A DNA stretch of 64,000 nt from positions 651 to 64,650 of the forward strand of contig LBYG01000001.1 in the NCBI GenBank assembly GCA_000996085.1. Reading direction: 5' to 3'. The position numbers and the translations under genes were made by a program. Numbering within the stretch: the stretch's first letter is position 1; every line of letters starts with the position of its first letter. The notes beneath the pieces are model-generated. The model did no database searches and was not told the origin of the DNA. It saw nothing but the letters and a program-made list of their open reading frames with translations. The DNA is from Parcubacteria group bacterium GW2011_GWB1_40_14. GTDB lineage: Bacteria; Patescibacteriota; Minisyncoccia; Terrybacterales; GWB1-40-14. Of the stretch, positions 14 to 34,529 are shown piece by piece.

Positions 14-976
14 TTGGAAAATTTTCTTATTGCAGCCGTATCATCTCTTTTATTAATAAGGGCTTTTCTTAATTTAACCGGATATCCACAATTTGGTTCC
101 GGGGATTGGCATATTGCTCATATGTTATGGGGCGGCATGTTAATGATGGCCTCAATCTTCATGCTTTTATGGTTTTTGGATAAAAATGCCAAACGAATTG
201 CAGCAATAATAGGGGGGGTGGGTTTTGGAGCCTTTATAGATGAATTGGGCAAATTCTTAACCAGTGATAACAATTATTTTTTTCAACCAACCATAGTTCT
301 GATCTATATAATTTTTGTGTTTCTTTTTCTTGTTGTCCGCGCCATCGAAAAATATATTAAGTTATCAAACAAAGATTACGCTATAAACGCCCTTGAAGTT
401 ATGAAAGAAGTTGTTTTGTATGATTTAGATGAACAGGAACGACAACGCGCGCTGCATTTTCTGGAATTAAGCGATCACGACAATCCTGCCGTTGAACCTC
501 TTAAAAAAATGCTCAGTTCTTTAGAGGGCAAGCCCGTGAAAAAAATAGGCATTTTGACTAGATTTAAAAAATTGCTATACGATATCTATATCGAACTTAT
601 CCAAAAGAAGTGGTTTGTTAACGTTCTGGTTTTCTATTTTATAGTTTTCGCAATTTTTAATTTAAGCATCGCTTATGAGGCAATACAAAAAAATGTGACC
701 TTTAATACGCAAGGACAGTTTATTTCCTCAATAATTTCATTAGCTTTTTCTCTTCTCGGTACATACTTTATCGTAATGGATAAACGACTTCTTTCGTATG
801 AAATGTTTAAGGATTCTGTGATCGTGTCTTTGTTTCTTACCCAATTTTTCTTATTTTATACGAAACATTGGTTTGGACTATTTATACTCATAATTAATTT
901 GCTTATTTTAGTTGTATCGCAATATCTAATAGAACAGGAACAAATAATTTATCAGAAACAAAAACATATTATTTAA
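14..976 (+). CDS. hypothetical polytopic membrane protein
   Basis: 320-aa ORF dominated by hydrophobic helices. No catalytic motif recognised. Starts near the window edge, so the true N-terminus could lie upstream. Confidence 0.45.
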   Translation: MENFLIAAVSSLLLIRAFLNLTGYPQFGSGDWHIAHMLWGGMLMMASIFMLLWFLDKNAKRIAAIIGGVGFGAFIDELGKFLTSDNNYFFQPTIVLIYIIFVFLFLVVRAIEKYIKLSNKDYAINALEVMKEVVLYDLDEQERQRALHFLELSDHDNPAVEPLKKMLSSLEGKPVKKIGILTRFKKLLYDIYIELIQKKWFVNVLVFYFIVFAIFNLSIAYEAIQKNVTFNTQGQFISSIISLAFSLLGTYFIVMDKRLLSYEMFKDSVIVSLFLTQFFLFYTKHWFGLFILIINLLILVVSQYLIEQEQIIYQKQKHII

Positions 977-5938: not shown

Positions 5939-6739
5939 ATGACAAAAGTATTTAAAAGAATCAGTGAGCATGCAATAGATTTCTTGGTTCCTTCGGAAAG
6001 GAACGGATTTATACCGCGGGCTTTGGGCGTGCGCTCTTTTTTTTACTACGGCTTTTTAATCTTTGTTGTAGCTATAATGCTTTTTTCTCCGCTAACAAAG
6101 ACTTTGCCCTGGAGAGTCTTTTTAGCCAATCTTTCACAGGAATTAATTTTGACTCAGACAAACCCGGTAAGACAATCAGTGGGCATTTCTCCTCTTCAAG
6201 TAGACCCGCTTTTAGCTGAGGCTGCGCGCATGAAAGCAGAGGACATGATAGCTAGAGATTATTTTTCACACATAGGTCCAAGCGGTGAATTGCCGTGGAA
6301 ATGGATAGAGGCTTTGGGTTATAAATATGCCGCTGCAGGAGAAAATCTCGCGATAGATTTTTCTGATCCAAGCGCTTTAGTTAATGCGTGGATGGCTTCA
6401 CCAACTCACGCGGCAAACATACAAAATGGGGTTTTTACTGATGTTGGTATAGGAGTTGCCGAAGGTGTGTTTGAAGGAAGAAATACAGCAGTTGTAGTTA
6501 TGTTTTTAGGAAGCAAAGCAAAAACCACTGTTGCGGTAGTTCAGCCTTCTCCTCCACCTGCTCCATTGTTCGCTCCTGAGCCCCCTCCCGCACCGGATCC
6601 TGTTTCACAGCCTGATCCAGTACCGTCACCAGTACCAGTTGAGCCTACTGAAACCTCACAACAAACAGTTACATCGGTTCCTATAAACACTCAAGCTGTC
6701 AGATCAGATACGCCTACAATATCTGAGAACAATATCTGA
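5939..6739 (+). CDS. CAP (SCP/PR-1/YkwD-like) domain secreted protein with C-terminal Pro-rich tail
   Basis: 'DYFSHIGPSGELPWKWIEALGYKYAAAGENLAIDFSDPSALVNAWMASPTHAANI' matches CAP-domain core motifs. N-terminal TM/signal. PPPAPLFAPEPPPAPDP linker. Confidence 0.75.
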   Translation: MTKVFKRISEHAIDFLVPSERNGFIPRALGVRSFFYYGFLIFVVAIMLFSPLTKTLPWRVFLANLSQELILTQTNPVRQSVGISPLQVDPLLAEAARMKAEDMIARDYFSHIGPSGELPWKWIEALGYKYAAAGENLAIDFSDPSALVNAWMASPTHAANIQNGVFTDVGIGVAEGVFEGRNTAVVVMFLGSKAKTTVAVVQPSPPPAPLFAPEPPPAPDPVSQPDPVPSPVPVEPTETSQQTVTSVPINTQAVRSDTPTISENNI

Positions 6740-9250: not shown

Positions 9251-9285
9251 GCCTCCGAAGTAATTCGGAGGCATTTACTTTTCAT
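9251..9285 (+). terminator. rho-independent terminator (gcctccgaa-gtaa-ttcggaggc + T-rich tail)
   Basis: Perfect 9-bp stem followed by 'atttacttttcatttt'. Confidence 0.7.
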
Positions 9286-9381
9286 TTTATCTTTAGCACG
9301 ATATACTGAAAAGTAATCCTTCGGCTTCGCTCAGGATGCACGTGATTGCAACTGCTCGCGAAACTCGCAGGCAATTACGGC

Positions 9382-9582
9382 ATGGATGATGAAATATTAA
9401 AACAACTTAAAGAAAATCAAGTTTTACTTGAAAAGACATATAAAACTGTTGAGCGCCTAAAAAAATATTTTATGTGGACGCTTATAATAACAGTTATTAC
9501 CGTTATACTGCCCATTATCGGATTAATATTTTTGTTGCCAATGCTTATGAGAAGTTTAGGCGGAGGGATTTTGGGACTATAA
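9382..9582 (+). CDS. hypothetical small membrane protein
   Basis: 66 aa from the ATG at 9382; the ORF-track start at 9346 is a TTG. One TM helix and a Gly-rich C-terminus. Weak call. Confidence 0.3.
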   Translation: MDDEILKQLKENQVLLEKTYKTVERLKKYFMWTLIITVITVILPIIGLIFLLPMLMRSLGGGILGL

Positions 9583-9607: not shown

Positions 9608-10069
9608 ATGAAACAAATTTCTGTATTTTTTAGACTAATAGATAAATTTTATCCTCCCGTCAAAGTGCATGCGCATTGTGATGTGCCGTGCGGTTTATAC
9701 GATACTGCTGCGGCAAAAATGGCGGCAAGTACGGTCGTTAAAATGGTAGAGAAAATTAACGCCCTGCCTGACGATGAAAAAGATCCGCAAAAAATGCTTG
9801 AGGCGCGCAATTCTTTTGTCCGTATGGTAATCACTAAAGAACAGCATGCTGAGATATGTAAGCGTGAGCTTTTAATATTATGGACAGACTTTTTTAAATC
9901 CGAGCATCTTGAAATGTTTCCGCAATTACACGAAACATTTTGGCATGCCGCTAAATTATGTTCTAAAAATAAACAGAATATAAGCGCGGAAGCCGCGGAG
10001 GAATTACAGGAAGCGGTGGTTAAGATAGAAGAAATGTTTCTGGCCGTAAAAGCTAAATCAGTAAAATAG
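9608..10069 (+). CDS. sodN: nickel superoxide dismutase precursor
   Basis: After a 22-aa leader comes 'HCDVPCGLYD', the Ni-hook motif of NiSOD (His1-Cys2-x-x-Pro5-Cys6-Gly-x-Tyr9). The remaining ~130 aa match the helical-bundle length. Cognate peptidase gene follows. Confidence 0.8.
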   Translation: MKQISVFFRLIDKFYPPVKVHAHCDVPCGLYDTAAAKMAASTVVKMVEKINALPDDEKDPQKMLEARNSFVRMVITKEQHAEICKRELLILWTDFFKSEHLEMFPQLHETFWHAAKLCSKNKQNISAEAAEELQEAVVKIEEMFLAVKAKSVK

Positions 10070-10070
10070 A

Positions 10071-10367
10071 ATGTTTTTTCCGATCGCTCGTTTTGTTGTT
10101 GATGGTAAGAGCATGCAGCCAACGTTTCAAGAAGGCGAACATCTTTTAATTAATAAACTTTTATATAAAATAAAAAAACCCCAAAAAGGAGATATTATTG
10201 TTTTGCGTGATCCAAGAGACAAGCAAAGATTGTTATTAAAGCGCGTTTTTGAAATACAAAAAGATAAACTTGAAGTAATAAGCGACAATATAGACGGAAA
10301 TGACAGCAGAACCTTTGGTCCCGTAAATATAGAGAGCGTTGTCGGAAAAGTTTTTTTTCGATATTGA
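10071..10367 (+). CDS. sodX: S26 signal-peptidase-like NiSOD maturation protease
   Basis: 98 aa. 'GKSMQPTF' Ser box and 'LLLKRVFE' Lys box of S26 peptidases. Starts 1 nt after the sodN stop. Confidence 0.7.
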   Translation: MFFPIARFVVDGKSMQPTFQEGEHLLINKLLYKIKKPQKGDIIVLRDPRDKQRLLLKRVFEIQKDKLEVISDNIDGNDSRTFGPVNIESVVGKVFFRY

Positions 10368-10372
10368 TATAT

Positions 10373-10402
10373 AAAAACCCCGATGTTGTGTCGGGGTTTT
10401 TT
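10373..10402. terminator. bidirectional terminator hairpin (ccccga ... tcgggg) between sodX and moxR
   Basis: A-run/stem/T-run architecture, readable on both strands. Confidence 0.65.
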
Positions 10403-10406
10403 GGTA

Positions 10407-11486
10407 TTAAAACTTTATTTGCGGTTCAGTCCAGTTTTGTTCTGATGGGGTCGCTACGCTTGCAACAATTCTTTTGATTGCTTCCTCGGCAGTTCGGTTT
10501 TCATTTCCTGAACGCACTACACGCATATTGACACCTACGCGATGTGCAAGAACCGGAACTGCAAGAGCTCGGATATCTTGAGGAATTACATAATCTCTAT
10601 CATTCATGAAAGCATAGGCGCGTGCCGCGTCACGCAAAGCAAGAGTGCCGCGTGTTGAGGCGCCGTAATCCAGCATTCTTTCGGATTTTTCTTTAGCGAC
10701 TTCTTTGCGCGTGGCATCAATGATCGCGACAATATATTCTTCTATAAGCCTGTGCATGTATATGAATCCATCCTCAGATGGATTAATAGTTAGCGCCTGC
10801 TGAATATGTAAGATTTCATCACAACTTATGACCGGTCTAAGGTCGTGGATCGGATGATGATTTCTCTGGCTGGCCAGAATTTCAAGTTCAGCTTCTTTGC
10901 TTGGGTAACCCAGACTTAATCTGAGCATAAAGCGGTCCAATAAAGCTTCGGGCAGAACAAATGTGCCCTCTTGTTCTATCGGGTTTTGTGTCGCAATAAC
11001 TAAGTAGGGTTTAGGCACGTTGTAGGATATTCCGTCGATTGTGACCGTTTCTCTGGACATGGCCTCAAGAACAGCCGAATTAACTTTTGGCGGTGTTCGG
11101 TTTAGTTCATCATCTAAGACGATATTTCCGGTTGCAATCGGGCCAAGTTTAGGCTCAAATTCCTTTGTTTCCGGATTGTAGATGCTGATACCGGTTACAT
11201 CGCCGGGCATAAGATCAGGAGTGCCCTGAATCCTTTTGAAGACCGCAATTCCGCTTTCTCCAGCGCTGACAGAGCGGGCTAGAGATTCAGCTAGAATGCT
11301 TTTGCCTGTTCCAGGAATATCGTCGTAAAGTATATGTCCACGAGCCAAGAAACCAGCTAAAGTAAGCCGGATAACCTCTTCTTTATCTTTAATTACAGTG
11401 TTTAAATTGGCGATAAGCTTATTGATTTTTTCGACAGCCGTTTTGCGGTCGATGATGGGTGGGTTGCCCATTGCACTGCCTTTCAT
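10407..11486 (-). CDS. MoxR-family AAA+ ATPase
   Basis: Walker A 'DIPGTGKS', Walker B 'VLDDELNR', sensor regions. 359 aa, typical of MoxR/AAA_3. No adjacent VWA/DUF58 partner gene. Confidence 0.85.
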   Translation of the reverse strand: MKGSAMGNPPIIDRKTAVEKINKLIANLNTVIKDKEEVIRLTLAGFLARGHILYDDIPGTGKSILAESLARSVSAGESGIAVFKRIQGTPDLMPGDVTGISIYNPETKEFEPKLGPIATGNIVLDDELNRTPPKVNSAVLEAMSRETVTIDGISYNVPKPYLVIATQNPIEQEGTFVLPEALLDRFMLRLSLGYPSKEAELEILASQRNHHPIHDLRPVISCDEILHIQQALTINPSEDGFIYMHRLIEEYIVAIIDATRKEVAKEKSERMLDYGASTRGTLALRDAARAYAFMNDRDYVIPQDIRALAVPVLAHRVGVNMRVVRSGNENRTAEEAIKRIVASVATPSEQNWTEPQIKF

Positions 11487-22800: not shown

Positions 22801-23454
22801 ATGCTTTTAAGTAAAACTCAGATTGCGATGATGGTGGGTTCAGTTGCCGTGACCGCACTTGTTGGGGGCGGAGCCGGATTTTTATATAAGCAACTGCCAA
22901 GCATCAGAAGCAATTTTTTGAATAATAACGAACAACAGAATAATGTAGAAGTTATAGACGCCCACGATGAAGGACAGGAAGAAACTGAAGTTAATTTGCC
23001 GGATATATCCGTATCATACGTTTCAAATTGGGAAATTTATCAAAATACTCAATATGGATTTGAGATAAATTATCCCAAAGAATGGTTTTTGGAAGAACAA
23101 ACCATTGAAGATAGCGAAATATTTGGCGTATCGATATCATCGCAACAAGTTTTGGAAGACTCTAACCAGGAAAAATATTTTATTGTTTCAATTATGCCCA
23201 ACGTTTTTACAGAACAAGATCTTGCCATGAACGGAGAAGCTGCGGGATATAAATTCCAATCGATCGATTTTCTCGGTTTACCCTCAAACAAGCTGATAGT
23301 CACAGGAGAAAATGAATTAGGAAAACCAAGCACCTCTATTTTATTTAACCGCAACTCAAAAGGTTGGCTTATTTCACATAACAATTATGACATGACCGGC
23401 AATCATAATTCCGTATATGACGAAATATTTTCCACCTTTAAATTTATAGATTAA
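22801..23454 (+). CDS. hypothetical membrane-anchored extracytoplasmic protein
   Basis: N-terminal TM helix then a soluble domain. No motif recognised. Confidence 0.4.
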   Translation: MLLSKTQIAMMVGSVAVTALVGGGAGFLYKQLPSIRSNFLNNNEQQNNVEVIDAHDEGQEETEVNLPDISVSYVSNWEIYQNTQYGFEINYPKEWFLEEQTIEDSEIFGVSISSQQVLEDSNQEKYFIVSIMPNVFTEQDLAMNGEAAGYKFQSIDFLGLPSNKLIVTGENELGKPSTSILFNRNSKGWLISHNNYDMTGNHNSVYDEIFSTFKFID

Positions 23455-23463
23455 TTTATACAT

Positions 23464-24210
23464 ATGTACGATGTTAGTTCTCTTTTTCTACCCGCATTTA
23501 TATCCGGATTAGTTACTTTTTTTGCTCCCTGCACCTTTCCATTAATACCGGCTTATTTGGGTTTGATTTCGGGTGCGACCGCAGAAAATTTGGCAGTTCC
23601 CGCAAAACGAAAGATTATTAATTGGAACATGGTTAAGAACGGCGCATTATTTATAGCCGGTTTTTCGTTTGTTTTTGTTTTTTTGGGTGCGGGGTTTGGG
23701 CTTCTTGGGACAGTTGTTGTAGGTTTTCGTTTATGGATAACCAAATTAGCCGGAGTTTTTCTTGTTTTTGCAGGAATAGGCATGCTCGGCTTTATTAAGT
23801 TTCCTGTTTTTAACCTTTTTAAAATTAAAAATACCGGCAGTATGGATCCATCGTTAAGAGCTTTCGTATTAGGCGCAGCTTTAGGCGCCGGATGGACTCC
23901 GTGTGTGGGGCCTATTTTGGGAGCCGTTCTTACGCTGGCCAGCGCTTCATCAACGTGGTTTGCGGGCGCACAACTTTTAGCTGTATTCTCATTGGGGTTA
24001 GCTATACCTTTTATTGTAGTAGCTATTTTGTTTAGTTCTGCTAATAAATACCTGTTAAAACTTAATAAATATATCCAAGTTTTATCGTTTATTTCAGCGA
24101 TATTATTGATCTTGTTCGGCATTTTGATATTTAGTAATAAATTAGGTTATTTAATGGGTTGGGGTTTTAAAATACTTAAATATCAAGATGTTATAATGCC
24201 TTTATTATGA
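23464..24210 (+). CDS. ccdA: cytochrome c-type biogenesis / disulfide-transfer membrane protein CcdA (DsbD beta-domain family)
   Basis: 'FFAPCTFPLIPAYLGLISG' and second conserved Cys in 'GWTPCVGPILGAVL'. Six TM helices. Confidence 0.8.
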   Translation: MYDVSSLFLPAFISGLVTFFAPCTFPLIPAYLGLISGATAENLAVPAKRKIINWNMVKNGALFIAGFSFVFVFLGAGFGLLGTVVVGFRLWITKLAGVFLVFAGIGMLGFIKFPVFNLFKIKNTGSMDPSLRAFVLGAALGAGWTPCVGPILGAVLTLASASSTWFAGAQLLAVFSLGLAIPFIVVAILFSSANKYLLKLNKYIQVLSFISAILLILFGILIFSNKLGYLMGWGFKILKYQDVIMPLL

Positions 24211-25115
24211 TTTTTAATCGGGAAAACTTTTTTAATTCTTCGTCCATTGGACGAACTTTAGAATCGGGAAAAAACACTGAACAAAAATCCGCTCAGGAGC
24301 AGTTTGGCGGCTTGCAAGGATATCTTCAGCATGAATTTAAAAATGCCATTTGGTCTGACGATATAAAACCTTTACATAAATCTTACGAAGGAAGAGTTCG
24401 TGAGGTTATAAATGCTATTGTATTGGGTGAGGCACAAAACGTAGATAGAGGAAAGCGTAGAGAGGCGGAATCAGTTGTGCGTTCCAGTAAAACCGCAGAA
24501 GTTACCGATACTGTAATTAAAAAATTTGTAGGAAATTCCGAAACAAGTGATAGAAAATATTTTTGGAGGCTTGAACAAGCGGCTTGGAGAAAAGCGCTTA
24601 ACGGTAAGGAACAAATTGAAAAAGCAGAAACCCCCTTTTTGCAAGAAGTATTTAGAGTTGCTCTTGAAGATGAAATCGAAGTGTTGCGAGTTCCAAAAAG
24701 TCAAAATGATTTCAGAGCTGCGCTGGACAGAGCTGCGGATTATGCGGCGCAATATAGAATTCTTTTTGGGCCAGCTGACAGTACTCAAGAACAGCCTGAT
24801 TCAGAATTGCCTTTACCGCCTGCGGATTATGAATATCTTAAAGGATTAATGCATGATGAAATTGAGCAAGGACTTGCTAACAGAACAGATGTTAAGCTTG
24901 CGCTTGATAATAAAGGAATGATCCAGAGTAATTATGATCCAAATCTTTTAGTAGATTATCGTATAATAAATGCTCAGCGTCTTAGTTTTACAGAAAACGG
25001 TGTTGATATAATCGACAGGCCTTTATATATAATTCAGCAGGAGCAGGAGGCAAAATTAAAAACGGAAAGTGAGAAACGTACCGATGCTTATTATTCGTCA
25101 GAACGCGAACCATAG
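24207..25115 (+). CDS. hypothetical soluble protein (no recognisable domain), co-operonic with ccdA
   Basis: 302 aa, charged, no TM. 4-nt overlap with the ccdA stop. Confidence 0.4.
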   Translation: MIFNRENFFNSSSIGRTLESGKNTEQKSAQEQFGGLQGYLQHEFKNAIWSDDIKPLHKSYEGRVREVINAIVLGEAQNVDRGKRREAESVVRSSKTAEVTDTVIKKFVGNSETSDRKYFWRLEQAAWRKALNGKEQIEKAETPFLQEVFRVALEDEIEVLRVPKSQNDFRAALDRAADYAAQYRILFGPADSTQEQPDSELPLPPADYEYLKGLMHDEIEQGLANRTDVKLALDNKGMIQSNYDPNLLVDYRIINAQRLSFTENGVDIIDRPLYIIQQEQEAKLKTESEKRTDAYYSSEREP

Positions 25116-26612: not shown

Positions 26613-26734
26613 GCCAATTTTGCTCCTGAGCTACGCGAAGGAATGCAAAATTGTGCACCCTGAGCGAAGTCGAAGGATTACTTATTTATATATTAGACAT
26701 CTTAATTTATCTTATGTATTATAGGTTATTGCCG

Positions 26735-27013
26735 ATGAATAATCAATCAGATAATAATACAGATAAAAATAAAAATACGGCCTCAAACGCCGCTTTTTCT
26801 TCGGCTTTTGCGCTTGGCTGGGAGATGGGGTATACAATTACAGTTCCTTTGGTGTTATTCGCTCTGCTTGGTCGTTTTGCGGATAAATATTTCAGCACTT
26901 CGCCCGTATTTTTATTGACCGGAATTATATTATCTATTTTCGTATCAGTATTTCTTTTATATCATAAAGTAAAAAGAATTATAAAAGAACAGGAAGAAGG
27001 AAATAAAACTTAA
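26735..27013 (+). CDS. atpI: ATP synthase protein I / AtpZ-like small membrane protein
   Basis: Start set at the ATG at 26735 (RBS 'aggtt' 7 nt upstream). Two TM helices and an 'AFxxAFALGWEMGYTITVPLVLFALLGRFADKYF' motif, typical of ORFs preceding atpB. Confidence 0.55.
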   Translation: MNNQSDNNTDKNKNTASNAAFSSAFALGWEMGYTITVPLVLFALLGRFADKYFSTSPVFLLTGIILSIFVSVFLLYHKVKRIIKEQEEGNKT

Positions 27014-27016
27014 TAT

Positions 27017-27742
27017 ATGCATATTTCTATTGCCGCGGAAAAACTATTTAATATTTTCGGATTTCCTGTTACTAACAGTCTTTTAATGTCATGGCTTGCC
27101 ATAATTATTTTGATATCTGTTGCCGTTTATTTTAAACGAACCGCCTCGTCCGTACCCGGAAAATTTCAATCGTTACTTGAGATGGTTTTTGAAGCGCTTC
27201 TTAATCTCATAGACAGCATTACACAGGACAGGAAAAAATCAGAAAAGTTTTTACCTTTAGTATTAACTATTTTTCTTTTTGTTATTGTCGCTAATTGGAT
27301 AAGTTTGGTTCCCGGAGTAGGCAGTATCGGATTAAATACTGAGGACGGATTTTTGCCGCTTTTTCGTCCTACAAATACCGACCTAAACAATACTTTAGCG
27401 TTAGCCGTTATAGCGGTTGTTTCGGCTCATTTCTTTGGCTTAAAAGCTCTTGGAATTAAAAAACATATCGGAAAATTCTTAAATTTTAAAGGACCGATAG
27501 ATTTTTTTGTGGGTTTGCTTGAGGCGGTAGGCGAAGTTTCAAGGATTTTATCTTTTTCTTTCCGGCTATTCGGTAATATGTTTGCAGGCGAAGTTTTGTT
27601 ATTGGTTTTGGCAGGCTTAGTTCCGTTTTTGGTACCAATCCCGTTTTTGGGCTTTGAGCTCTTTGTGGGCTTTATTCAAGCGTTAGTTTTTGCTATGTTA
27701 ACTTTGGTCTTTTTAACAATAGCTACCGCAGAACATCATTAG
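27017..27742 (+). CDS. atpB: F0F1 ATP synthase subunit a
   Basis: Conserved Arg-containing helix '[16 protein letters not shown]' and C-terminal '[20 protein letters not shown]'. Confidence 0.9.
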
Positions 27743-27744
27743 TT

Positions 27745-28073
<329 letters not shown>

Positions 28074-28075
28074 GG

Positions 28076-28576
28076 ATGTCTGAACTGTTAACAAAATTAG
28101 GAATAGATTGGCACTTGTTTTTAGCGCAGGTTGTTAATTTTGGTATATTGGCTTTTTTGTTACACAGATTTTTATATAAGCCAATGCTTAAAATATTATC
28201 CGAAAGGAGCGCCAAAGCTAAAGAAGTTGTTGAAGGCGCGGCAAGTATGGCTCAGGCTAAACGCGATTTGGAACAGGAAATAGTGGAAACAAGAAATAAG
28301 GCGCGCAAGGAGGCGGATGAGATATTGGTTGAAGGTCAAAAAAAAGCAGAAATTATTCGTGCTGGCGTTATAGCACAACTTGAAAAAGAACTTGTTTTAT
28401 TGAAAAATAAAGCTTTAGCGGAAATAGAGAAAGAGCGGGCAAAAGCAATGAACGAAGCAAAGAATGAATTGGCTTCTACGGTTATTTTAGCCGCGGAAAA
28501 AGTACTTGCGCGCGAGGTCAAAAATGAAGACAGTATAAAACTTGCACAAGAAGCGCTTAGTAAAGTCAAAGAATAA
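28076..28576 (+). CDS. atpF: F0F1 ATP synthase subunit b
   Basis: Single N-terminal TM helix then a long charged helix. Position in operon. Confidence 0.8.
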   Translation: MSELLTKLGIDWHLFLAQVVNFGILAFLLHRFLYKPMLKILSERSAKAKEVVEGAASMAQAKRDLEQEIVETRNKARKEADEILVEGQKKAEIIRAGVIAQLEKELVLLKNKALAEIEKERAKAMNEAKNELASTVILAAEKVLAREVKNEDSIKLAQEALSKVKE

Positions 28577-28581
28577 AAACC

Positions 28582-28989
28582 ATGACTCAACATATTGACG
28601 CAAAACAAATCGCAAAAACCTTTCTTGATTCTTTAGCGGATAAACATTCGCAACATGATCAGATCGAGACGGTTAAACAGTTCGTTGCTTTCCTTGTTCA
28701 AAACAATCTTTTGTCGCATTCGGGAAAATTAGTGGAAGCTATACAGGAAGAAATGATAAAGCGCTCAGGGCAGACAACGGTTCAAATGGAAAACTCCGGA
28801 GACTTAAGTGAAGAAGATATTGAAAACATCAGAAAAACAGCCGCTTCTTTATTGGGAGAAACTGTTAATATGGACCAGGAAACAAGTAAAAAACTTTTAG
28901 GCGGCATCAAAATGAAAATTGCCGATAAGGTAATTGATGCGACAATTAAAAGAAGACTGGAACAGCTTTCTAAAAATATTAAACAATAA
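28582..28989 (+). CDS. atpH: F0F1 ATP synthase subunit delta (short form)
   Basis: C-terminal '[25 protein letters not shown]' matches the delta/OSCP C-terminal motif. 135 aa. Confidence 0.65.
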
Positions 28990-28991
28990 GT

Positions 28992-30497
28992 ATGGATTCT
29001 AAAAAAATAATTGAAGAACTTAGAAAAGAAATATCCGGAGCAAAATTAGAAACTCGAGCGGAACAAACCGGCAATGTTCTTTTGGTAAAAGACGGCGTTA
29101 TACGTATTTCCGGGCTTTATTCGGTCGGAGCGCTGGAAATGTTGACTGTAAGAACCTCAGAAGGAGAAATTTCTGCAATGGCCTTAAACCTTGGGGCCGA
29201 AGATGTCGGAGCCATAGTTTTGGGCGATTGGGAAAAAATTAAGGAAGGCGATGAAGTTGTCGGAACCGGAAAAATTCTTTCTGTTCCTGTCGGCAAGGCT
29301 TTTTTAGGACGAGTTGTTAATCCTTTAGGCGAATCTTTGGATGGTAAGGGGCCGATTCATGCCGACAGATATAACCAGCTTGAGCGCATTGCGCCCGGTG
29401 TTATCACGAGAAAATCCGTAGATACATCTTTAGCTACAGGAATCAAAGCCATAGATGCAATGATCCCGATAGGACGCGGTCAGCGTGAACTTATTATCGG
29501 TGACAGACAAGTGGGTAAAACTGCGATTGCCGTTGATACCATTATCAATCAAAAAAATTCAGACGTTAAATCTATTTACGTTGCCATAGGTCAGAAATTA
29601 TCACGTGTTGTAAAAATAGTTGCGGAATTGGAAAAGCGGGGCGCTTTAGATAATACGATAGTTGTTGTGGCCTCAGCTTCTGATCCTGCTGCTTATTCGT
29701 ATATTGCGCCGTATGCCGGATGTGCTATGGGCGAATATTTTATGGACGAGGGACAAGATGCTTTGGTGGTTTATGACGATCTCTCCCGTCATGCATGGGC
29801 TTATCGTCAGGTGAGTCTTTTGCTTGAACGCTCCCCAGGACGTGAAGCTTATCCCGGAGATGTTTTCTATTTACACTCACGTCTTCTTGAACGCGCCGCT
29901 AAACTTTCAAAAGAATATGGAGGAGGCTCTTTAACGGCTTTACCGATAATTGAAACTCAAGCGGGCGATATTTCCGCATATATTCCGACAAATGTTATTT
30001 CAATTACCGACGGTCAAATATATCTTGAACCGGAATTATTTTACCAAGGAACCCGTCCTGCTTTAAATGTAGGTTTGTCTGTATCCCGCGTGGGTTCTGC
30101 CGCTCAGACCAAAGCGATGAAAAAAGTTGCCGGTAAGTTGCGTTTGGATCTGGCTCAATATCGTGAATTGGCTGTTTTTGCTCAGTTTGCGCAAGATTTA
30201 GATGAAGCTACCAAGAAACAACTTGAGCGAGGCAAGCGCCTTACTGAATTATTAAAACAAGGTCTATACGCGCCCGTTCCTGTAGAAGAGCAGGTTGTAG
30301 TATTGTATGCCGGTGTTAATGGTTATCTTGATAATATTGCACCGGAAAAAATTCATGATTGGGAAGAAGGCTTTATTGAATACTTGAAACGTCAAAATAA
30401 TAAAATACTTGAAAATATACGCATCAGTAAAAATTTGGAAGAAGATACAGAGAATATGCTTAAAGAAGCGACAGAAGGATACAACAAGATTCTATGA
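28992..30497 (+). CDS. atpA: F0F1 ATP synthase subunit alpha
   Basis: Walker A '[11 protein letters not shown]' and highly conserved alpha-subunit blocks ([43 protein letters not shown]). Confidence 0.95.
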
Positions 30498-30727
30498 GCT
30501 TAATGGGTAAAATAATAGGAAGCAGAAAGGGGATATTTATACTACTTTTTATTCTGATTATTTTGCTCGCCGCCATATTTTTCTGGCAAACCATTATAAC
30601 CATAAGAGTAAAAACATATTACAAAGAAGTAGAGCTTAATAATAAAAAACAGGAATACATGCAAAGACTTGAAAAAATAATTAAAACTGAGCAAGAACAA
30701 AAATTAAATATTGTATCCGGTAATTAA
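30494..30727 (+). CDS. hypothetical small membrane protein inserted between atpA and atpG
   Basis: 77 aa with one TM helix. 4-nt overlap with the atpA stop, ends 3 nt before atpG. Confidence 0.4.
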
Positions 30728-30729
30728 AA

Positions 30730-31647
30730 TTGTATATGGCACAGAATACACGAGAATTAAGAAGAAGAATAAAATCCACAAAATCTATCAGGCAGATAAC
30801 TAAAGCTATGGAAATGATAGCCGCAAGCAAAATGCGTAAAGCGCAGCTTGCAGCTTTATCTTCGCGTCCATATTCTGTTTTAGCGTGGGAAATGCTTTCT
30901 TCGGTAGCCGAAAAATCGGAACAGTTTGCCGGAGCCGACGCCGAATTGTTCTATAAATTTTTATCCAGAGGAATAAAGGTTAATTTAAATAAAGAACTTA
31001 TAATTTTAATAACATCAAATAGGGGATTGTGCGGTTCCTTAAATTCACAATTGGTGAATGCCGCGTTTTCAATAGTAAAGAACAATAAAGACACGTTCGA
31101 CGAGCTCAGTGCAAGTAAATATTCATTTATAATTGTCGGAAGAAAAGGTTTGCGCTCTGCGTTACGTTTAGGTCTGGATGTTTTTGCGTCTTATGACGGT
31201 TTTGAAAATCAACCAACTTTTGCCGATACATTGCCGATCGCGCGTTCTGTTATGGATAGTTTTGCCGGCGGACAATTCAAAAGCGTAAAACTTATTTATG
31301 CGGATTTTATTTCCACACTTAAATATGAGATCCGTGTAACGCAGCTTTTGCCGATCAACATAGGTGATGAATCTGTCGAGACAAAGCATGCGGAATTTTT
31401 ATTTGAACCTTCGCCGGCAGAAGTACTGAATTCTTTGATCCCGAGATTGATAGAATTACAGGTTTATCAGGCGCTGGTTGAGAATTTGGCTTCGGAGCAT
31501 TCAGCGCGCATGGTAAATATGAAAAACGCTTCTGATTCTGCCCGCGATATTATCAATGATCTTACTCTTACTTATAATTCAGTCCGTCAGGCGTCTATTA
31601 CTGCTGATTTGGCAGATATAATAGGCGGCAGAATGGCGGTGAAGTGA
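30730..31647 (+). CDS. atpG: F0F1 ATP synthase subunit gamma
   Basis: N-terminal 'RRRIKSTKSIRQITKAMEMIAASKMRKAQ' and C-terminal 'ITADLADIIGG' gamma-subunit signatures. Confidence 0.85.
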   Translation: MYMAQNTRELRRRIKSTKSIRQITKAMEMIAASKMRKAQLAALSSRPYSVLAWEMLSSVAEKSEQFAGADAELFYKFLSRGIKVNLNKELIILITSNRGLCGSLNSQLVNAAFSIVKNNKDTFDELSASKYSFIIVGRKGLRSALRLGLDVFASYDGFENQPTFADTLPIARSVMDSFAGGQFKSVKLIYADFISTLKYEIRVTQLLPINIGDESVETKHAEFLFEPSPAEVLNSLIPRLIELQVYQALVENLASEHSARMVNMKNASDSARDIINDLTLTYNSVRQASITADLADIIGGRMAVK

Positions 31648-31794
31648 AGACTTATGCGTTTGTCCTTTTTTTCGCTCATTCTCGGCAAGCCAGCGCTTGC
31701 CTCCGAGGTTTCGACTGTTTTGTCCCTCGTATTACTCGGGAACCATGCCAAAACAGCCTCAAAAACCGCTCAAAAAAGACAAACGTCTAAGTCT
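31648..31794. repeat. palindromic element in atpG-atpD spacer: 17-bp terminal inverted repeat (agacttatgcgtttgtc / gacaaacgtctaagtct) around a ~110-nt GC-richer core; contains a 47-codon ORF (31654-31797)
   Basis: Read directly. The core shares blocks (ggtttcgact, tccctcg, ctcggga, ccgctcaaa) with the atpD in-frame insertion at ~31955-32015. Confidence 0.55.
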
Positions 31795-31825
31795 TAACAA
31801 GGGTAGAAAGAGGAAATAAAAATAA

Positions 31826-33271
<1,446 letters not shown>

Positions 33272-33305
33272 AATGCAAAGTGAAAAGCTGAAAATAATGC
33301 ATGAA

Positions 33306-33431
33306 CCCCGTTAGAAAATTGCTATTATTTATGGATTATTATTTATATAAAAAGAGTTGTTCGGTTTATAATAGTCAAACAAGTTTTTCGACTTGTTTGA
33401 CCGTTAACTTTTCGGCAATTTTCTAACGGGG
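33306..33431. repeat. nested palindromic element: 17-bp outer stem (ccccgttagaaaattgc / gcaattttctaacgggg) enclosing perfect inner hairpin gtcaaacaagt-ttttc-gacttgtttgac
   Basis: Read directly. Shares the 'tttcgact(t)gtttg' core with the atpG-atpD spacer element and 'gaaaatt' with the 12506 element. Confidence 0.6.
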
Positions 33432-33661
33432 TGAAAAAATTTCTTGCGGATCTAGTTTTAATTACCAGTTTAACCGTTCTCATTTTTGGTTTAGGCTTAT
33501 TTTTTGGCTTTGCGCCAAGATACACTAGCGGTGAAAGCCTTGAGGGGTTAGTCCAATTTTTCTCTATATTAGTCGGACTAATACTATTTTTTATCTATTT
33601 AGTTTTAGTGTTTAGCGAACCCGAAAGAACAGAACAAAAAAATAATCCAAATAGGTATTGA
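33431..33661 (+). CDS. hypothetical small membrane protein (GTG start) preceding atpC
   Basis: 76 aa with two TM helices. Start lies within the right arm of the palindromic element. Stop overlaps the atpC leader. Confidence 0.3.
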   Translation: MKKFLADLVLITSLTVLIFGLGLFFGFAPRYTSGESLEGLVQFFSILVGLILFFIYLVLVFSEPERTEQKNNPNRY

Positions 33662-33666
33662 AAGAT

Positions 33667-34149
33667 ATGTTTAAAATTCAATTTGAAATTACGACACCCG
33701 AGAGAACAGCTTTTAAGGATGAAATTGATTCTTTAACCGTACAGACAAGAGACGGAGAAATTACTATTTTACCCAATCATATTCCGTTAGTTGCTCCACT
33801 TGCTACCGGAGAATTGGTTGTTCGTAAAAATAAAGAAATCATCCCTTTACATGTGGGAGAGGGATTTGTTGAAATAAAACCATCTTTAAGCGGCTCTCAC
33901 GTTACGAGAGTTATAATATTGGCTGATGAGGCAGAGCGAGCTGAGGAAATAGATGTTAAAGCAGCCGAAGAAGCGCAGCAACGCGCGCAAAAAGCTATGG
34001 AAAGCTATAAAAATGCCGATGATGTTAAATTTGCTGATGCGACCGCAGTTTTTGAAAGAGCGTTATCCCGTACGAAGATAGCAAGAAAACACGCCCGTGG
34101 TTCAGGTGGGTTCACCACAGGCGGAAGAGCGTCTATTGATAACGAATAA
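33667..34149 (+). CDS. atpC: F0F1 ATP synthase subunit epsilon
   Basis: Start set at the ATG at 33667 ('MFKIQFEITTPERT...'); the ORF track begins at an upstream TTG. Beta-sandwich plus a C-terminal helical region. Confidence 0.8.
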   Translation: MFKIQFEITTPERTAFKDEIDSLTVQTRDGEITILPNHIPLVAPLATGELVVRKNKEIIPLHVGEGFVEIKPSLSGSHVTRVIILADEAERAEEIDVKAAEEAQQRAQKAMESYKNADDVKFADATAVFERALSRTKIARKHARGSGGFTTGGRASIDNE

Positions 34150-34199
34150 ATATTTTGTTATTCTTAAACAAAATGCACTTTTAGAAAAGAGGTAATTGT

Positions 34200-34529
34200 A
34201 TGTCTAAAAATACGGTTGAAGTAACCAATGCAACCTTTGAACAAAAAGTTTTAAAATCAAAACTTCCTGTGATTGTAGATTTTTGGGCTGAGTGGTGCGG
34301 ACCATGTCACGCCATGATATCAATTGTTGAGGAATTGGCTTTAGAATATAAGGAGAAAGTTAAATTTGCCAAGTTAAACGTTGATGAAAATATGGCAACC
34401 GCGCAGGTTTATACCGTCATGTCTATTCCTACGTTTATCTTGTTTAAGGAAGGCCAACCCGTTAAGCGCTTTGTAGGCGCTAGGTCAATTACTGCATTTA
34501 AACAAGAAATTGAAGGATGTATTAAATAA
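34200..34529 (+). CDS. trxA: thioredoxin
   Basis: 'WAEWCGPCH' active site. 109 aa. Confidence 0.9.
   Translation: MSKNTVEVTNATFEQKVLKSKLPVIVDFWAEWCGPCHAMISIVEELALEYKEKVKFAKLNVDENMATAQVYTVMSIPTFILFKEGQPVKRFVGARSITAFKQEIEGCIK

Follow-up and report, generated by a model that had tools for sequence, protein, structure and literature searches.

A putative nickel superoxide dismutase maturation pair, sodN-sodX, in the Parcubacteria group bacterium GW2011_GWB1_40_14

The stretch of DNA analysed here, 64,000 nucleotides of the Parcubacteria group bacterium GW2011_GWB1_40_14 (contig LBYG01000001.1, positions 651 to 64,650 of the forward strand; hereafter the window), carries two adjacent genes, sodN and sodX, that very probably constitute a functional nickel superoxide dismutase (NiSOD) module, a reading to which a probability of about 0.93 is assigned. 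The first gene would encode the precursor of the enzyme and the second a short soluble peptidase of the S26 family, predicted to remove the leader of that precursor. The reading is carried by the family membership of the two proteins, the register of the nickel-binding motif, the fold, the linkage of the genes, the purifying selection that acts on them and the identity of the host. An earlier note, made from the letters of the window, had drawn a 153-amino-acid (aa) open reading frame (ORF), with a 22-aa leader ending in KVHA and then HCDVPCGLYD, followed 1 nt on by a 98-aa ORF of S26 type; both ORFs were found again and their coordinates proved exact (Table 1).

The working proposed for the module is as follows. 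SodN would be made as a cytoplasmic precursor with its 22-residue leader, and translation of SodX would probably be coupled to that of sodN, since a single base (10070) lies between the sodN stop codon and the sodX ATG at 10071. The anchor-less SodX, by means of Ser14 and Lys57, would cut after Val(-3)-His-Ala(-1) and leave His23 (codon 9674-9676) as the free N-terminus. Nickel would then be bound by the amine and imidazole of His1, the amide of Cys2 and the thiolates of Cys2 and Cys6 of the HCDVPCGLY hook, and the mature four-helix-bundle protein would dismutate superoxide as the metal alternates between Ni(II) and Ni(III). Transcription probably starts at a conserved promoter that lies near 9279-9307, may include a gene for a small membrane protein, and would end at the terminator at 10373-10401. 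The module probably serves the tolerance of low or intermittent oxygen in a groundwater host of the Parcubacteria/Terrybacteria, within the Candidate Phyla Radiation (CPR).

Nickel hook, leader and predicted fold of SodN

SodN matched the Pfam profile Sod_Ni PF09055 with 145.6 bits (cut-off 25; E=1.5e-42) and the NCBIfam equivalog TIGR02753 with 156.3 bits (cut-off 90; E=5.9e-46). Its sequence matches in the PDB were NiSOD chains only (E=2.6e-17), aligned end to end, and His23 to Tyr31 fell in register with residues 1-9 of the mature Streptomyces NiSOD crystal chains 1q0d and 1t6u. Two of the checks that the earlier note had proposed, the profile search of both proteins and the alignment of the HCDxPCGxY motif with the N-terminus of the mature enzyme, therefore came out in its favour.

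When 81 SodN sequences drawn from many phyla were aligned, the hook residues H23, C24, D25, P27, C28, G29 and Y31 proved invariant (81/81). In the leaders of the same sequences, position -1 was Ala in all 81, position -3 was Val or Ala in 77 and position -7 was Pro in 59. Judged from this alignment, the -3/-1 pattern of the leader is that of the classical '-3/-1' cleavage rule of S26 peptidases. The leader has no hydrophobic core (maximum Kyte-Doolittle-19 (KD19) value, 0.89) and is therefore not an export signal. Cleavage before His23 would be expected by analogy with the Streptomyces system (PMC3919588).

The AlphaFold2 (AF2) model of SodN is a predicted four-helix bundle, with a predicted local distance difference test score (pLDDT) of 87. 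All 16 significant fold matches of the model in the PDB were NiSOD structures, with target TM-scores of 0.86-0.89.

The NiSOD of Streptomyces coelicolor and S. seoulensis (SodN SCO5254, structures 1T6U and 1Q0D; SodX SCO5255) belongs to the same family by curated hidden Markov models. It has HCDxPCGxY in identical register past a cleavable leader whose -3 and -1 residues are Val and Ala, the four-helix bundle that is predicted here, and an adjacent gene for a short S26 peptidase (PMC3919588). The two proteins differ nevertheless in several respects: identity is about 30-34%, an 11-residue insertion occupies the first inter-helix loop of the present SodN (between helix 1 and helix 2) when compared with the crystal chains, two residues around the metal site are replaced (see below), and the extra cysteines C84 and C118 are present. 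The latter were considered as a novelty of the lineage, a proposal that was rejected because both are widespread among the 81 sequences, C118 being found in 65 of them across phyla and C84 in 23. The leader of Streptomyces SodN is 14 aa long, against 22 aa here. Binding of nickel, assembly of a hexamer and superoxide dismutase (SOD) activity would be expected of SodN by analogy with the Streptomyces and cyanobacterial systems.

SodX and its linkage to sodN

SodX matched Peptidase_S26 PF10502 with 75.5 bits (E=6.4e-21). Residues S14, M15, P17, K57, D78, S79 and G83 were invariant in the sodN-linked homologues; the codons of the catalytic pair lie at 10110-10112 (Ser14) and 10239-10241 (Lys57). 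The AF2 model (pLDDT 86) showed the core fold of signal peptidase I (SpsB, SipA, LepB) with query TM-scores of 0.76-0.80. With the type I signal peptidases, such as Escherichia coli LepB and Staphylococcus aureus SpsB (MEROPS S26), SodX has in common the Ser/Lys dyad, boxes B, D and E, the core beta-barrel and the preference for small residues at -3/-1. It departs from them in having neither a membrane anchor nor the domain II insert, in its variant box E loop and in its substrate, which would be cytoplasmic and is without a hydrophobic signal core.

Linkage of the peptidase to sodN was scored with a profile of sodN-linked peptidases, within 4 kb, at 80 sodN loci of species-representative genomes; these cover CPR lineages, Chloroflexota, Cyanobacteria (including Prochlorococcus MIT 9201), Myxococcota, Planctomycetota, Omnitrophota and several archaea. 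A SodX homologue was found in 73 of the 80 genomes, downstream on the same strand in 68 of these (immediately downstream in 65) and divergent upstream in the other five, and three of the seven loci with no linked peptidase were on contigs that end just past sodN. Of 5.8 billion proteins searched by profile, 2223 were returned as relatives, and those that had a name were mostly called 'nickel-type superoxide dismutase maturation protease'. SodX has been described as the cognate peptidase of SodN (PMC3919588).

The arrangement resembles that of the marine cyanobacterial sodN-sodX-sodT loci (Prochlorococcus, Synechococcus), in which sodX also lies immediately downstream on the same strand; in Streptomyces, by contrast, sodX is placed across a conserved intergenic region. 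Cyanobacterial SodX proteins are about 33-35% identical to the present one and have the same catalytic boxes, and in most cyanobacterial sequences the SodN leader ends in V-H-A before HCD, as here. Some of these SodX proteins bear a hydrophobic N-terminal extension that is missing in the present protein. In addition, SodT, a UreH-family nickel permease with six transmembrane (TM) segments, adjoins sodN and sodX in cyanobacteria (PMC4284471), whereas in the window it was found neither beside the pair nor elsewhere.

Weighing a functional module against its alternatives

Several observations speak against a functional module. The score of SodX on its own equivalog model, TIGR02754, was 62.7 bits, which is 0.55 short of the cut-off of 63.25. 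In SodN, Ala39 and His80 align with Glu17 and Arg47 of Streptomyces NiSOD, two residues that we take to be second-sphere hydrogen-bond partners of His1; as read from the alignment, the second coordination sphere of this SodN clade differs from that of the structurally characterised Streptomyces enzyme. Box E of SodX carries replacements at two near-invariant positions of the family (Gly to Ser71 and Ser to Gly76), in a loop that in LepB positions the nucleophile and contacts the substrate (PMC12984324). The window has no recognisable nickel importer or nickel chaperone.

The peptidase is the less secure of the two identifications, and its TIGR02754 score bears on the possibility that the 98-aa protein is a general (Sec) signal peptidase I whose adjacency to sodN is coincidental. 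Such an identity would agree with a score just under the SodX cut-off together with a TIGR02227 sigpep_I_bact score of 76.6 bits (cut-off 47), and with the GenBank name 'Signal peptidase I'; it would also agree with the finding of no second S26 paralogue or canonical LepB in the 64-kb window, although 64 kb is too little to expect a lepB gene. The match to the generic model is nevertheless uninformative, because accepted SodX proteins, which reach 71-90 bits on TIGR02754, score equally high on it (62-86 bits). The match of the present protein to TIGR02754 spans model positions 3-88 of 90, and other members of the lineage straddle the cut-off with 59.1, 60.9 and 64.4 bits. The anatomy of the protein is not that of a signal peptidase I either: there is no TM segment, with 13 residues before Ser14 and a maximum KD19 of 0.48, the length is only 98 aa (short soluble SodX proteins have about 90-130 aa, and the median of the sodN-linked family is 108 aa), a LepB-type insert domain is lacking and signal peptidase I is aligned in two separate stretches. 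Moreover, its homologues adjoin sodN across phyla in the genomes described above, and its nearest named relatives are SodX proteins. A general signal peptidase beside sodN by chance is therefore very improbable. Linkage, naming, calibration of the scores and anatomy are four independent lines that place the peptidase in the SodX family, in agreement with the earlier note, whose identification was sustained in homology, synteny, size and catalytic residues. By analogy with the Streptomyces and cyanobacterial systems, SodX would be the dedicated leader peptidase of SodN and would carry out its cleavage.

The box E replacements raise a second possibility, in which they would have inactivated SodX, so that SodN could no longer mature and the module would be in decay. 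The loop reads SDNIDGNDSR against the family pattern G-D-N-x-x-x-S-T-D-S-R and is one residue shorter, and the confidence of the AF2 model dips to a pLDDT of 64 exactly there. In LepB, the tripeptide Gly272-Asn274 positions the nucleophile Ser90, and Ser278 and Ala279 establish hydrogen bonds with the bound peptide; the corresponding loop of the LexA family is one residue shorter (PMC12984324). SodX has Ser at the position of LepB Gly272 and Gly at that of LepB Ser278.

The distribution of the replacements and the selection on the genes argue otherwise. When the pairing was scored in 178 sodN-linked peptidases, the eight proteins with Ser at the first box E position were all devoid of Ser/Thr at the second, where Gly or Ala was found instead, while all 170 proteins with Gly at the first position kept Ser/Thr at the second (Fisher p=5e-14, a value uncorrected for phylogeny). 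The eight swapped proteins comprise three sequences of this lineage and others from Myxococcota, a cyanobacterium, Planctomycetota, Kofleriaceae and a Chloroflexota metagenome-assembled genome (MAG), those outside the lineage being at loci L036, L040, L056, L061 and L075. Within the lineage the variant is common to all members (P0121, P0122 and L092). In comparisons of the window with three diverged strains or lineages, with synonymous divergence (dS) up to about 1.7, the ratio of non-synonymous to synonymous divergence (dN/dS) was 0.05-0.13 for sodN and 0.12-0.16 for sodX; the near-identical pair formed by the window and assembly L087 gave 0.30 for sodN, from only 9 differing sites. Both genes are under purifying selection, and the cleavage site and hook of SodN are still perfect. 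Since the paired swap recurs and the genes are under purifying selection, the change looks compensated rather than a sign of decay, and an inactive SodX in a decaying module has only a very slight chance of being correct. Tentatively, and with less than even confidence, the swap might be taken to move a functional hydroxyl to another position of the loop in a compensated way, which would produce an alternative, still active Ser/Lys loop arisen independently several times. Full-text literature searches on SodX and on box E gave no description of the swap.

Host and public records

The window proteins have exact counterparts in KKR47253.1 (SodN), KKR47254.1 (SodX) and KKR47263.1 (UvrA) of the Parcubacteria group bacterium GW2011_GWB1_40_14, and near-identical ones in Candidatus Terrybacteria bacterium RIFCSPLOWO2_01_FULL_40_23 (Patescibacteria group, Parcubacteria group, Candidatus Terryibacteriota). 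The guess of a CPR-like host that had been made from gene content was thus correct. All contigs with the sodN-sodX pair came from groundwater metagenomes, at least one of them (L004) from the Rifle-aquifer project PRJNA268031. That the locus instead entered by faulty binning or assembly from outside the CPR, for instance from a member of the Chloroflexota, as relatives of SodN at about 63-65% identity in Chloroflexota and Limnocylindria and a published phylogeny with Patescibacteria NiSOD nested within Chloroflexota could suggest, has a negligible probability: the pair is embedded in contigs of 40-138 kb, and its synteny is identical in assemblies made independently, the guanine plus cytosine content is even, being 0.40 at the locus and 0.35-0.40 over the window as a whole, the flanking genes, UvrA among others, carry the same Parcubacteria/Terrybacteria attribution, the nearest homologues of SodN are other CPR proteins, and ancient horizontal transfer accounts for the phylogeny.

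The earlier note had also referred to the CPR as a group generally viewed as poor in oxidative-stress enzymes; the implied rarity of a SOD in such a genome does not hold. SOD genes have been reported in 66-83% of groundwater Patescibacteria MAGs (bioRxiv 10.1101/2021.07.28.454184), and NiSOD itself is published there: at least three Patescibacteria clusters are nested in Chloroflexota sequences and were read as horizontal transfers (bioRxiv 10.1101/2021.01.12.426412), and a NiSOD of Saccharibacteria was noted in 2017 (bioRxiv 10.1101/211649). The name 'superoxide dismutase, Ni' is already borne by many other CPR MAG proteins (Wildermuthbacteria, Magasanikbacteria, Doudnabacteria). A complete NiSOD maturation pair under selection in a Rifle-aquifer genome fits these reports of SODs in many groundwater Patescibacteria and of NiSOD gained horizontally, and has little weight beyond annotation.

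The NiSOD module is hence already known in Patescibacteria, and what is new consists of two re-annotations and the reason for the generic label of SodX. KKR47253.1 is labelled 'hypothetical protein' in GenBank, whereas the sister SodN OHA50546.1, which falls into the same cluster at 90% identity (5 of 153 residues differ, for an identity of about 97%, and the synteny is identical), is already named 'superoxide dismutase, Ni'. Both KKR47254.1 and the sister SodX OHA50545.1 are labelled 'signal peptidase I', because the cut-off of TIGR02754 (63.25 bits) narrowly misses this lineage (59-64 bits). The practical value lies in renaming KKR47253.1 as SodN, and KKR47254.1 and OHA50545.1 as SodX.

Layout and transcription of the locus

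Table 1. Features of the sodN-sodX locus, with positions in the window
Feature	Position	Strand	Remarks
Terminator-like hairpin	9251..9272	+	perfect 9-bp stem GCCTCCGAA/TTCGGAGGC, T-rich tail
Promoter-like block	9270..9316	+	TTTTCA 9279-9284, 17-nt spacer, TATACT 9302-9307 (promoter scan)
Small membrane protein gene	9382..9582	+	66 aa from ATG 9382 (TTG 9346 would give 78 aa); C-terminal TM helix
sodN, nickel superoxide dismutase precursor (predicted)	9608..10069	+	153 aa; stop TAG 10067-10069
SodN leader peptide (predicted)	9608..9673	+	22 aa, ends PPVKVHA; MKQISVFFRLIDKFYPPVKVHA then HCDVPCGLYD
Ni-hook H23-C24-D25-V26-P27-C28-G29-L30-Y31	9674..9700	+	equivalent of His1 to Tyr9 of the mature enzyme
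sodX, short soluble S26 Ser/Lys peptidase (predicted)	10071..10367	+	98 aa; GKSMQPTF and KRVFE motifs
Variant SodX box E ('Omega') loop, residues 71-80	10281..10310	+	S71-D-N-I-D-G76-N-D-S-R
Bidirectional intrinsic terminator	10373..10401	.	12-bp stem, A-run upstream, U-run downstream; between the convergent sodX and MoxR-type genes
MoxR-type AAA+ ATPase gene (AAA_3 + AAA_lid_2)	10407..11486	-	convergent with sodX, terminator in common

The order NosD-like gene, small membrane protein gene, sodN, sodX and convergent MoxR-type gene was the same in every assembly, including a contig of 130 kb. At the 5' side, the stem of the hairpin at 9251-9272 is kept through compensatory changes in loci L087 and L092; this terminator-like element would close the upstream NosD-like gene and delimit the transcription unit on its 5' side. 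The block that follows it, about 40 nt of non-coding DNA, is near-invariant when the window is compared with the diverged lineage of L092, despite a coding dS of about 1.7. The reading of 9279-9307 as a promoter rests on this conservation in the face of saturated synonymous divergence, and the block 9270-9316 is probably the promoter of a unit formed by the small ORF, sodN and sodX. A 17-nt imperfect inverted repeat (9275-9291 and 9300-9316) overlaps the TTTTCA/TATACT block, which could possibly be an operator as well. Nur-type regulation, known from Streptomyces, was not evident at this locus. The terminator between sodX and the MoxR-type gene has a folding energy of -21.6 kcal/mol (z=-6.0), and none of 200 shuffled sequences folded as well. 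A scan of the window against Rfam gave nothing at gathering thresholds.

The distance from the promoter-like block to the small ORF varies among assemblies. In the window and L087, an insertion of 67 nt separates the -10 hexamer from the ATG of the small ORF; L092 is without this insertion, and there the ATG lies 9 nt past TATACT and the transcript looks leaderless.

Genes around the pair

The small membrane ORF, 25 nt upstream of sodN, has a dN/dS of about 0.10 against L092 and a maximum KD19 of 3.07. It is a genuine gene under selection and belongs to a widespread family of proteins of about 65-70 aa (273 representative clusters) with the consensus ...SVEKTRKYFLWTLIIT...LPLIGL..., and gave no match in Pfam or NCBIfam. 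It was considered as a third component of the module and rejected, as the family profile found none at the 80 other sodN loci; two metagenome scans gave matches from the same lineage only. It is probably a co-transcribed neighbour that, in all likelihood, does not belong to the NiSOD module. In the same way, the MoxR-type ATPase was considered as a metal-insertion partner and rejected: no homologue was found near sodN in 80 other genomes, the gene is kept at the position adjacent to sodX only in this lineage, and the adjacency is incidental.

The search for nickel-uptake genes that the earlier note had proposed found none within the 64-kb window. It covered all seven ORFs with at least three predicted TM segments and most of the other ORFs by Pfam, and some by NCBIfam; none of the NiCoT, UreH, HupE, CbiMNQ or Nik families was present among the ORFs scanned. 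Within 64 kb, absence of a nickel transporter neither supports nor contradicts nickel dependence, which the enzyme itself implies, and we infer a supply of nickel in the host. At the left edge of the window, which cuts it, lies a gene for a six-TM protein (14-976, plus strand) that has 341 aa in its full-length copy (212-1237 of the 130-kb assembly L001); it was the only one of the seven multi-TM ORFs left without an assignment, and had no match in Pfam or NCBIfam and no His-rich loop.

Upstream of the locus, two genes of the window differ from their counterparts in L001. A 13-nt insertion, ACAATATCTGAGA, at 6716-6728 breaks up a CAP-domain gene that encodes 373 aa in L001, leaving two ORFs (266 and 109 aa), and 145 nt are missing at the junction 7444/7445, where the NosD-like beta-helix gene is reduced from 697 aa to an ORF of 475 aa. 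Assembly L088 also has a shorter NosD-like gene, of 434 aa. These disruptions are either strain-level differences or errors of the 2015 MAG assembly.

Elsewhere in the window, the regions 22801-25115 and 26651-34529 hold between them an F-type ATP synthase operon (subunits a, b, gamma and epsilon were identified), followed by a thioredoxin gene at 34200-34529, and a gene for a DsbD-like membrane protein at 23464-24210, with flanking ORFs that have no family match. Genes for UvrA, UvrC and an endonuclease III-like protein are also present, so that several redox and repair functions occur together in the window.

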